Part shown: one piece after another, positions 390 to 3,400 of the stretch
Position numbering within the stretch: the stretch's first letter is position 1
Layout: the number at the start of each line of letters is the position of its first letter
Assembly (NCBI GenBank): GCA_039621445.1
Contig: CP154954.1
Span: 20,942,642-21,006,641 of the forward strand
DNA length: 64,000 nt
Reading direction: 5' to 3'
From: Euglena gracilis
Taxonomy: Eukaryota
Translations under genes and position numbers: made by a program
Notes under the pieces: generated by a model
Databases searched by the model: none
Told to the model about the DNA's origin: nothing
What the model saw: only the letters and a program-made list of their open reading frames with translations

Positions 390-468
390 GCGGCGGCCGG
401 GGACCGCTGGGCCCGTCCCCCGCCCCCCTCCCCGGCTCTGCCCGCTCGCCCAGGCCGCCCCGCAACGT
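390..468 (+). CDS. Gene 1 exon (..[22 protein letters not shown]); start approximate
   Basis: Joins in frame to 741 across MITE intron (aac gt|g gcc). Confidence 0.55.
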
Positions 469-3400
469 GGCCAGGGTTTTTTTTTTTTTAGTCTTGGACC
501 CCCTTGTCTTGGTGGGGACCCCCTTGTCTAGTCTTGGGGGCATGGGAAGGGTGGGTGGGTCCCGCCAAGCCCCCCTCCCCACCCGGGGGGGGGGAGATCC
601 CCCCAGGGGGGAGGGGAAAGGTGGTATTTTTAGCATTTTTCGCGATTTTTGACCATTTTCGGGGAAAAAGTGGGGGGGGCCAGGGGGTGGGTGGGTGGGG
701 TGACCCCCTCCCCCCCGGTCTTAAAAAAATCCCTGAACGTGGCCTTCGTGGAGGTGAGCCGCACGCTGACCTCCATCACCCAGCCGCCGCCCCCTCCAGC
801 CACCCGGGGGTCCTTTGCACTTCTATCCGCCACCAGTGACGATGAACCGCCTCGTGCCTCTTCGCCGCAGCTCCTGAAGCTTGCTCATCTTTTTCTGCGC
901 TATTGACCACCAAACCAGCACCAAATGCACTCACAGCAAAGTACCTCCCCCCCCCCCTTGTCTAAGCACCACCCTTGTCTAAGCACCACCCCCCCGGTTC
1001 TTACCCATCTTTTTACAGGTCATCGTCACGGGGAGTTTTATTTTGTGTGCATTTTTAAGGGAAATTTCTCAAAAATTTCGAAATTTCTGCAATTTCTGAG
1101 ACCTGATTTGGTGAGGTATTGTTGATTTCTGCATCCAAATGTGTGTAAGTTCAACAGTGGACCTCCAAATTAAGGGGAATTTTTCCTTTTCGGCGCGAAG
1201 CGCCGGATTTTTTTTGCAGTCAAATTTTTCCCCCTTGTCTAAGCACCACCCCCCTGGTTCTTACCCATATTTTGGCAAAATAAGCACCACCCCCCCGGTT
1301 CTTACCCATCTTTTCCGGTTCTTAGACAAGGGGGGGGGGGAGGTAACAGGAGGTTGAAAAACATAGGGATACTAACATGGGAAATTATGGGCACCGCCGC
1401 CTCAGCTTGTTTTCTTCTGCCCAGAGTTTTCAAACGGACTGCAACCGGAAACCCTGTATCATTGAGAGCGTGGCGAGCAAACTGCCCGAAACCGTTGTTT
1501 TCAAATGTCATGTGTCTGACGGCTGAGATCACTCATCTATCGTTTACCCTTCTTAGACCGTATATGATTTTTTCTGGTCTTTGGTTTATCTTTGACGAAA
1601 GAGGTGTCGGAAAGGAGCAGTGTTTTGAGAATCACCGGAAATTTTTGGGGAAGGAGCTGTTACAAGATTTCAGCTTCCTATTATTTTTATTTGGACAGTA
1701 TGTGTGCACTGCCCATCAAATTATTCCACACTGCCCTCCAATCAGTATCTCCAATATTTGGATCCTATTGTTATTCTTATGGTTAGTCATGCCGTTATCC
1801 ATACACTCCGCCCTGGCAGAGCCTTTTTTTGAGCCTTTTTTTTGTTCCCATCCTCAAGCCTTTTTGGAATGTGGAAAAATTAACACTGCACTCTTTCCAG
1901 ACTCAACACACACACACACACACACACACACAAACACAACACACAACACACAACACACAACACACAACACACAACACACAACACACAACACACAACACAC
2001 AACACACAACACAGTGCATTTCCATTTGTTGGAACCTCTGCTGTTAGGAACGAGGAGGCCCCTTACAAAGTGGAGGGGGTGTTGCCCTCAAGCGACACAG
2101 ATCTGCCCCTCCCGAGAGGGCAGCCTGGCGGTGGTTGCAGATGCGGAGATCGGGGTGGCCGCGGCTGGGGTCACATCGCCGAGGCAAGATGGTTGCCACG
2201 GGGTCCGACCCCCCGCCTCCCACATGGGGAAACCTGATGCCGCCGCCTGACCCCCGATGCCCCCCCCTAAAGGGAAAGGGGGGGTCCGACCCCCCCCCCC
2301 CGGTCATTTAGTACCCGGGGCTCCCCCCCTCCCCCGGCCGGCCCCAGCCCCAGCCGCGTTGGCAGCCGCCCGGCCTGGCGGCCTCCTCGCGGGGCTGCCG
2401 GCGCCGGCCAACGGACGGCCCTCGGCGGCGCTGCGGGTGGACGGCGGCGGCCCTGGCCCTTTGCTTCAGGCGGCGGGGGAGAGGGACGCCGGGCGGGCCA
2501 GCCAGCTCCCAGCGGTCGTCCTTTCCTGTCGGTGGGCATGAAGGAGATGCCCCCCCCCCCCCAGCAGGTCCCCCCAGACAGTTGCCACCCAGGCTTGCTC
2601 CGGGTGACAAACTTCCCGGGTAGTTGTGCTGTTTCAACCTGTAAAGCCTCGGGAGTTTCAGCTTAGTTTTGGGGGAGTGGGAAAAAAGGAGGTGACTCCT
2701 GGTGGAAACTAAAAAAGCGTTGACAATTTGAGAAGAACTGTTGTGTGCTGAAGAAAGAAAGAGAAAGACAAAGGCCGTTGTTGTTTTGACTCCTCTCGCC
2801 ACTTTTCGCGGGGACCTCTTTGGGCAAAGGCTTGCTGTGAACCTGTTTTTACTTTTAAGGAATGCCAAGGTGCACATTTATCGTTCGAGTTCTATCTCAG
2901 TAAAAGCCCGCCAGGGGGGATGCGAGGTGGGGGCTGCCACACAGCTGGCATCTTCGCGCATATACGCATGGCTATGGCTATGGCTATGCTGGGTCCTGTA
3001 ACGTCTCCGCAAAGGGCCCGCTGTGCCCGGCTCCCGGCACCGGGGGAGGCCCGCCTCTTGCTGCTGGAGCAGGAGAACCGGGAGCTGAAGGACCTCCTTG
3101 CCCAGGCCAACGCCCGCTACACCCGCGGCGAAGCGTGGGCCACCCCCATGGGGCTGTGTGTCGTGCCCAGGCCTCCGCTGGGAGGGACGCTGGCGCCGAT
3201 GGTACTCGTCTCAGGGGAAAGACCCTATGAACAAAATTTCATCATAGAGTCTCTCCTTTTTCGACCGAGAGCCACCGTTTGCACAAACAATTATTGGAAA
3301 ATTGAGTCTTGGTTTTAAATCAATGTTCACAGCTTTGGCGACATGCATGCCAGGTTCGAAGGCCATGTTGGCCATATGTTCTGGAGTTGAATGGCTGACG

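Follow-up and report, generated by a model that had tools for sequence, protein, structure and literature searches.

For the nonconventional introns of Euglena, knock-in genetics has defined a splicing code, 5'-N3CDG-/-CH'GN5-6|R (Nomura et al., 2025; PMC12501133). According to the available text of that paper, the 5' spacer must be exactly 3 nt long, and the 3' spacer of 5 nt may have one additional nucleotide. An origin of such introns from MITEs (miniature inverted-repeat transposable elements) had been proposed earlier (Milanowski et al., 2014; PMC3935182), in a paper whose accessible part states that no transposable element was then known from a euglenid genome. In the portion at hand, a 2024 review (PMC11282704) labels CAG and CTG as terminal inverted repeats (TIRs), describes the border repeats as resembling target-site duplications (TSDs) and cites a report of circular intron products (Guminska et al., 2021). 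The MITE idea is repeated in the 2025 PNAS paper on the code (PMC12501133) and in a 2025 paper on diplonemids (PMC12621601). In their available parts both call the origin unclear, the latter for diplonemid introns, and the available part of PMC11170887 gives only the MITE hypothesis. The origin of euglenid nonconventional introns has been an open question since the 1990s. The present analysis concerns a 264-bp MITE of Euglena gracilis located at positions 472-735 of a 64,000-nt stretch of contig CP154954.1 (assembly GCA_039621445.1, positions 20,942,642 to 21,006,641 of the forward strand), which is referred to as the window. Very probably this MITE, with its CAG...CTG termini, inserted into a transcribed exon and is spliced out without a scar by the euglenid nonconventional machinery.

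The element and its borders consist of the following features, none of which is assigned a strand:

472-735: MITE of 264 bp, 60% G+C, starting CAGGGTTTTT and ending AAAAAAATCCCTG
472-484: 5' TIR, CAGGGTTTTTTTT, of repeat pair I14, paired with 723-735 in the minimum-energy fold
723-735: 3' TIR, AAAAAAATCCCTG, of repeat pair I14, paired in the fold
464-471: TSD copy 1, AACGTGGC, from sequence reading, repeat finding and register arithmetic
736-743: TSD copy 2, AACGTGGC, from the same three sources

A 264-bp TIR element flanked by a perfect 8-bp duplication had been proposed here from the letters alone, and the repeat search recovered the same structure. The two TIRs are 13 nt long and 92% complementary, with one mismatch, and a direct repeat (459-472 and 731-744, family D6) surrounds the element. 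The copies of the duplication are alike at 8/8 bases and directly abut the element ends. With its TIRs, its adjoining duplication, its small size (264 bp) without coding capacity and its many copies, the element has the properties of a MITE. The terminal repeats are paired in both the minimum-free-energy and the centroid folds. The element, its family and its duplication are confirmed.

Reads were mapped on positions 1-1890 of the window from two raw RNA runs (X21 and X24), one contig set (X15) and one DNA contig set (X1), the RNA runs being chosen by species label or as small-share guesses. X15 was treated as RNA-like, as its depth is absent on the unique sequence at 1-126, 253-378 and 1387-1701, where X1 has 87-119. 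The transcribed region, all on the + strand, is made up of:

407-414, + strand: 3' end of an upstream nonconventional intron, CTG (407-409) followed by a 5-nt spacer (410-414); the exon begins with G at 415
415-468, + strand: exon part A, ending within TSD copy 1 in the N3 register, from RNA depth in bins 379-441 and 442-504 (X21, X24 and X15)
469-740, + strand: probable nonconventional intron of 272 nt, GGC + CAG...CTG + AACGT and then exon G, from the published code, arithmetic and zero RNA depth at 505-567
741-782, + strand: exon part B, from RNA depth in bin 757-819, zero depth in 820-882 (raw runs) and an X15 loose end
783-2090, + strand: downstream intron of 1308 nt, non-GT-AG and without the CAG/CTG code; an X15 contig joins 782 to 2091, and the border can slide by 2
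2091-2200, + strand: next exon (putative extent); the loose end matches 2091-2120 and the frame stays open

On unique sequence, RNA depth in X21, X24 and X15 is limited to 415-472 and 744-782. It is zero in all three sets in the bin inside the MITE (505-567), and also in 253-378 and 1387-1701; in bin 820-882 it is zero in X21 and X24 and 2.4 in X15. In X15 the bins average 18, 20.2 and 19.7; by our own arithmetic these values correspond to the fractions 27/63, about 31/63 and 26/63 of a single contig at about 42-fold depth, plus 2.4. By this calculation the contig covers 415-441, 442-472 and 757-782, and an unspliced contig at 758-930 adds the 2.4. Before position 415, loose ends with identical foreign sequence, as left by splicing, were found in three reads of X21, three reads of X24 and one X15 contig (255 further letters). 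A 24-nt piece of their consensus has no match in the window at up to three mismatches, which points to a splice to an exon outside the window. The X15 contig continues behind 782 with letters equal to 2091-2120 of the window, indicating a splice across 783-2090. In X24, about three reads lie on each side of the MITE, with every first mate on the minus strand, the orientation that a stranded library would give for + strand RNA. On the DNA side, X1 contigs at 199-488 (depth 86.8) and 731-915 (101.5) span both filled junctions without breaks at 472 or 744. Their depth equals that of the unique flanks (87-119), and DNA sample X1 has the filled site only. The mapping across the locus that the original prediction had called for thus places 415-468 in an exon and finds no RNA depth in the MITE-interior bin 505-567. 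The depth arithmetic argues strongly that the MITE and one copy of its duplication are removed from the RNA, which is very probably the case.

The register explains how such removal could leave no scar. A cut of 3 nt before CAG and 5 nt after CTG had been predicted to take out the element together with exactly one duplication copy, and this holds: 469-740 is 272 nt, that is 264 + 8. A ninth base is also common to both sides (C at both 472 and 744), which makes 10 equivalent registers and not 9. GT-AG, GC-AG and AT-AC ends occur in none of these 10. Every term of the published code is found in 469-740 and the adjoining duplication, which read GGC-CAG...CTG-AACGT|G (PMC12501133). At the 5' end, the 3-nt spacer GGC and CAG occupy 469-474; at the 3' end, CTG (733-735) is followed by the spacer AACGT (736-740) and the purine G at 741. 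The intron ends also pair, through the 13-nt inverted repeat. The upstream intron end, CTG-GGCCC|G, has the same register. The claim that this register is common to the other introns of the gene therefore holds for one of the two testable ends, namely the upstream end and not the intron 783-2090, in which CCCCCTCC (790-797) faces GGAGGGGG (2072-2079). That intron also contains a very high-copy repeat at 946-1386. The use of the MITE as a nonconventional intron is well supported. Of the proposal that an intact MITE is itself a non-GT-AG intron, the exonic flanks, the empty interior and the lack of a canonical register are borne out by the data, and the exact junction is deduced. We infer this junction, the enzyme and the (hAT-like) superfamily.

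The following sequence of events would account for the locus. A non-autonomous DNA transposon would have inserted into the transcribed exon of a + strand gene, duplicating the 8-bp target AACGTGGC. The terminal repeats would pair in the pre-mRNA, and the nonconventional machinery would read the paired CAG/CUG and cut at two points, 3 nt before CAG and 5 nt after CUG. In its duplication copy, each cut would fall between T and G, after which the exons would be joined. The two spacers, 3 + 5 nt, add up to the duplication length; the 272 nt removed would therefore comprise the element and exactly one duplication copy, and the mRNA would regain the sequence that preceded the insertion. The left copy would contribute its last 3 nt as the N3 spacer, and the right copy its first 5 nt as the N5 spacer. 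As the spacers would come from the duplication, any CAG...CTG element with an 8-bp duplication would carry the code along, the sole demand on the target being a purine at position 6.

The element belongs to a family with several copies in the window. The terminal 13-mer, with one mismatch allowed, has 9 occurrences in the window, where 0.32 would be expected, and none of 100 shuffles reached 9. The related elements, again without an assigned strand, are:

22868-23152: sister MITE, flanks TTGGGGGG and TTGGGGGC, 7/8 alike
23362-23637: sister MITE, duplication GCCCCGTT on both sides, 3' end CCG and not CTG
54922-55221: sister MITE, duplication CAGTAGAG on both sides
14739-15014: MITE of a related subfamily (CAGGCTTC... 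ends), duplication ATCCAGCT
45505-46231: other CAGGG...CCCTG element of 727 bp, duplication CGCTTGGG
54009-54658: other CAGGG...CCCTG element of 650 bp, duplication CTTAACAG

The sister copies named beforehand at 22868, 23362 and 54922 are real, each with an 8-bp flank repeat, one of which is only 7/8 alike. The four family copies and the subfamily copy at 14739-15014 align over their full length with 60% mean column identity, and the family copies sit at sites with differing flanks. Across the seven CAG-started elements of the window, the 8-bp duplication is perfect in six and 7 of 8 in one. Five of the seven are perfect duplications on CAG..CTG elements, and the copy at 23362 is perfect but ends CCG. 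In the DNA run X1, the contig depths inside the MITE sum to between 5,347 and 292,307, which is 50 to 2,900 times the 87-119 of the unique flanks, a summed depth that does not equal copy number. The element boundaries are confirmed by X1 contigs from other copies, eight of which part from this sequence at 469 and seven at 735. An Rfam search of the whole window gave no match, and a metagenome scan with the 5' end pattern gave no locus.

To examine the length of the duplications, the window was scanned for CAG..CTG pairs separated by 40-3000 bp whose ends are complementary at 10 or more of 12 bases. Among the 255 pairs found, the exact flank repeat was 0 nt long in 168, 1 in 65, 2 in nine, 3 in five, 5 in one, 6 in two and 8 in five; lengths of 4, 7 and 9-12 were never found. 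As a chance control, 30 block shuffles combined produced a single case of length 8. A scan open to any end triplet was at first dominated by (ATACT)n and (AT)n arrays and was redone with a periodicity filter, which also discards a pair if its 8-mer is present over 30 times. The filtered scan returned 17 pairs with a flank length of 8, five of them CAG..CTG; no other class has 11-12 of its 12 end bases paired. It returned no CAG..CTG pair at flank lengths of 4, 6, 7, 9, 10 or 11, and the one at length 5 overlaps the 54009 element and is an artefact. This exclusivity of 8 bp indicates that several families of CAG-ended elements with 8-bp duplications are present in the window.

Two further observations concern these elements. 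A 1262-bp stretch at 60856-62117 starts CAGGGCGGTCCG, ends ...GGACCGCCTTG and has GGTGGGTG on both sides, with 10/12 end bases paired; it may be a further decayed element and failed the stricter filtered scan. The seven duplications (464-471, 14731-14738, 22860-22867, 23354-23361, 45497-45504, 54001-54008 and 54914-54921) have G at position 6 in 6/7 and C at position 3 in 4/7, giving, from a small sample, a consensus nnCnnGnn that the alignment of the copies shows as well. A palindromic C3/G6 target would supply the purine of the code whichever strand is transcribed.

Several results count against the proposed splicing and its coding context. The joint 468>741 is not among the joints listed (15 of 55, all 15 of them DNA repeat noise), so the exact junction is derived from depth. 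Raw RNA cover of the exon amounts to only about three reads per run, and the RNA (X21, X24 and X15) and DNA (X1) come from different samples. Relative to the window, X1 and X15 share a 1-nt deletion (806) and two substitutions, T>C (822) and C>A (916), which indicates strain or allele differences between the assembly and the samples. The whole-element fold is no more stable than shuffled sequence (z = -0.89), and the fold evidence was limited to the terminal pairing, the whole-element energy not being used. The intron at 783-2090 lies outside the code. Two of the three frames are open across the joined exons, a G+C-rich stretch, and protein searches with 2092-2250 and with the piece of a coiled-coil open reading frame at 6403-6558 against longer proteins gave no match.

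The RNA might come from an allele, paralogue or strain with an empty site, with nothing spliced at 469-740. Such a site would by construction yield the same RNA sequence as a scarless splice, and it would suit both the different origin of the samples and the three places in 731-915 at which X1 and X15 differ from the window. Against it, the X1 contigs at 199-488 and 731-915 cross the filled junctions at full flank depth, albeit in one DNA run, and the X1 depth of 106 in bin 757-819 leaves about 4.5 for any second copy; an empty site is accordingly quite improbable. The ordinary spliceosome, or cryptic sites, could instead remove the element and leave a product that is not scarless, that is, not plain ...CGCAACGTGGCCTTCGTG.... 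The place of the exact junction outside the joints listed would allow this, and there is a precedent in maize Ds, a hAT element, which Giroux is said to have described in 1994 as being spliced imprecisely. The depth of X15 in 442-504, however, equals cover up to about 472, as is predicted if the aligner extends through the 8+1 nt common to both sides. The absence of canonical ends from all 10 scarless registers argues against the spliceosome as well, and this explanation has very little probability.

For scarless removal by the nonconventional machinery, it makes no difference whether the exon is translated, as the intron claim is independent of the coding status. The exon is likely coding. 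The frame of PPRNVAFVEV, the peptide expected to be restored by splicing, is open from the 30 loose upstream letters through parts A and B of the exon and into roughly 50 codons of the exon that follows. Restoration thus stands as far as the open frame goes, and coding itself is uncertain with two frames open. A 5' leader or a non-coding RNA, in which the peptide would have no protein meaning and the splice would matter for RNA integrity only, would agree with the second open frame, with a peptide rich in proline and arginine and with the protein search that found no homologue. Set against the long open frame, an untranslated exon is possible, if somewhat unlikely. The superfamily poses a separate choice, between hAT and another transposase that duplicates 8 bp, such as Merlin, under which the intron would still be real. 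The hAT elements, such as maize Ac/Ds, have 8-bp duplications, ends of the form (C/T)A(G/A)NG and the target consensus nTnnnnAn, and CAGGG is the start of the maize Ac end. The 8-bp duplication is present here, and all seven elements start with CAGGG or CAGGC and so carry the hAT end motif; the Ac-like start speaks against Merlin. The hAT target consensus is not seen at the seven sites, a small sample, with T at position 2 in 3/7 and A at position 7 in 2/7, which is a point in favour of Merlin. The two E. gracilis Merlin families described in the available text of PMC8101967 also favour Merlin, being from the same kind of organism and having 8-bp duplications within the 8-9 bp rule to which the present elements conform. 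The same text describes Merlin ends as 5'-GG, whereas the ends here are CA...TG, with CAG and CTG directly beside the duplication and a CA start in all seven elements. Judged from these sequence features, Merlin is possible, if somewhat unlikely, and a hAT-like family is the better guess, at even chances or perhaps somewhat better.

A broader proposition, that the splicing code itself (3 nt, CAG...CTG, 5 nt, purine) is the footprint of CAG-ended DNA transposons that duplicate 8 bp, is tentative and somewhat less likely than not. If it were true, the machinery would measure 3 and 5 nt from paired transposon ends and so achieve scarless removal, and most of the roughly 70% of Euglena introns that are nonconventional would be decayed insertions of such elements. 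The palindromic target preference (C3, G6) would then provide the required purine on either strand. The locus itself also yields a numerical prediction, namely that the border slide distance of CAG/CTG introns should peak at 8 and decay with age. The family can be counted genome-wide, and the element is suited to the published knock-in assay. The finding ties a splicing rule to the geometry of transposition and hints at which transposase to seek.

The remainder of the window contains further features. The repeats at 127-252 and 946-1386 have a summed DNA contig depth of about 10^6 against about 100 on unique sequence, and RNA reads on both strands. From about 3000 to 15100, the + strand carries a chain of short open frames encoding coiled-coil-like peptides rich in alanine, leucine and glutamate. 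This chain suggests a single long, intron-rich gene, with the MITE at 14739-15014 lying between two of its pieces. Simple repeats, comprising a long array of (ATACT)n, a run of (AT)n and several microsatellites of the (CA)n type, lie at about 40719-42500, 52190-52255, 1905-2015 and 10500-10900.

Huff and colleagues reportedly showed in 2016 that introners of Micromonas and Aureococcus are DNA transposons removed with one duplication copy, which restores the coding sequence, and that they use GT-AG sites and the spliceosome. The present intron differs from this type in that GT-AG borders occur in none of its registers. The hAT MITEs share the 8-bp duplication and the CAGGG termini with the elements of the window and differ in their target consensus. 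The introners of Amoebophrya, in the available text, are repeated non-canonical introns with inverted repeats of 8-20 nt and direct repeats overlapping the borders, and are read as MITE-like (PMC7789003). Their direct repeats are 3-5 nt and their splice sites vary relative to the hairpin, whereas the present intron has an 8-nt repeat and a constant register of 3 and 5.

Close relatives are the nonconventional introns of Euglena themselves, which are described as non-GT-AG, with paired ends, CAG at +4 to +6, CTG at -8 to -6 and a purine as the first exon base (PMC12501133); all of these properties recur at 469-740. Whether the link to transposons was already in print had been left undecided. 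The MITE origin with TIR- and TSD-like borders had been published (PMC3935182, PMC11282704 and PMC12501133), and the hAT and 3+5=8 argument was not found in the available parts of these papers. In a literature search confined to papers without their supplements, neither hAT nor an 8-bp duplication nor the 3+5 arithmetic was found named for Euglena in any paper. The MITE-origin hypothesis (PMC3935182; PMC11282704) contains the same idea of TIRs and TSD-like borders and, in the text available, gives no element family, duplication length or superfamily. A concrete family member acting as an intron, the exclusive 8-bp duplication and the 3+5 match are, as far as was searched, new. This locus provides a concrete example for the old idea that nonconventional introns began as transposons: the available text of PMC12501133 treats these introns as a sequence code, whereas here the intron is a recognizable copy of a multi-copy transposon with its 8-bp duplication intact.

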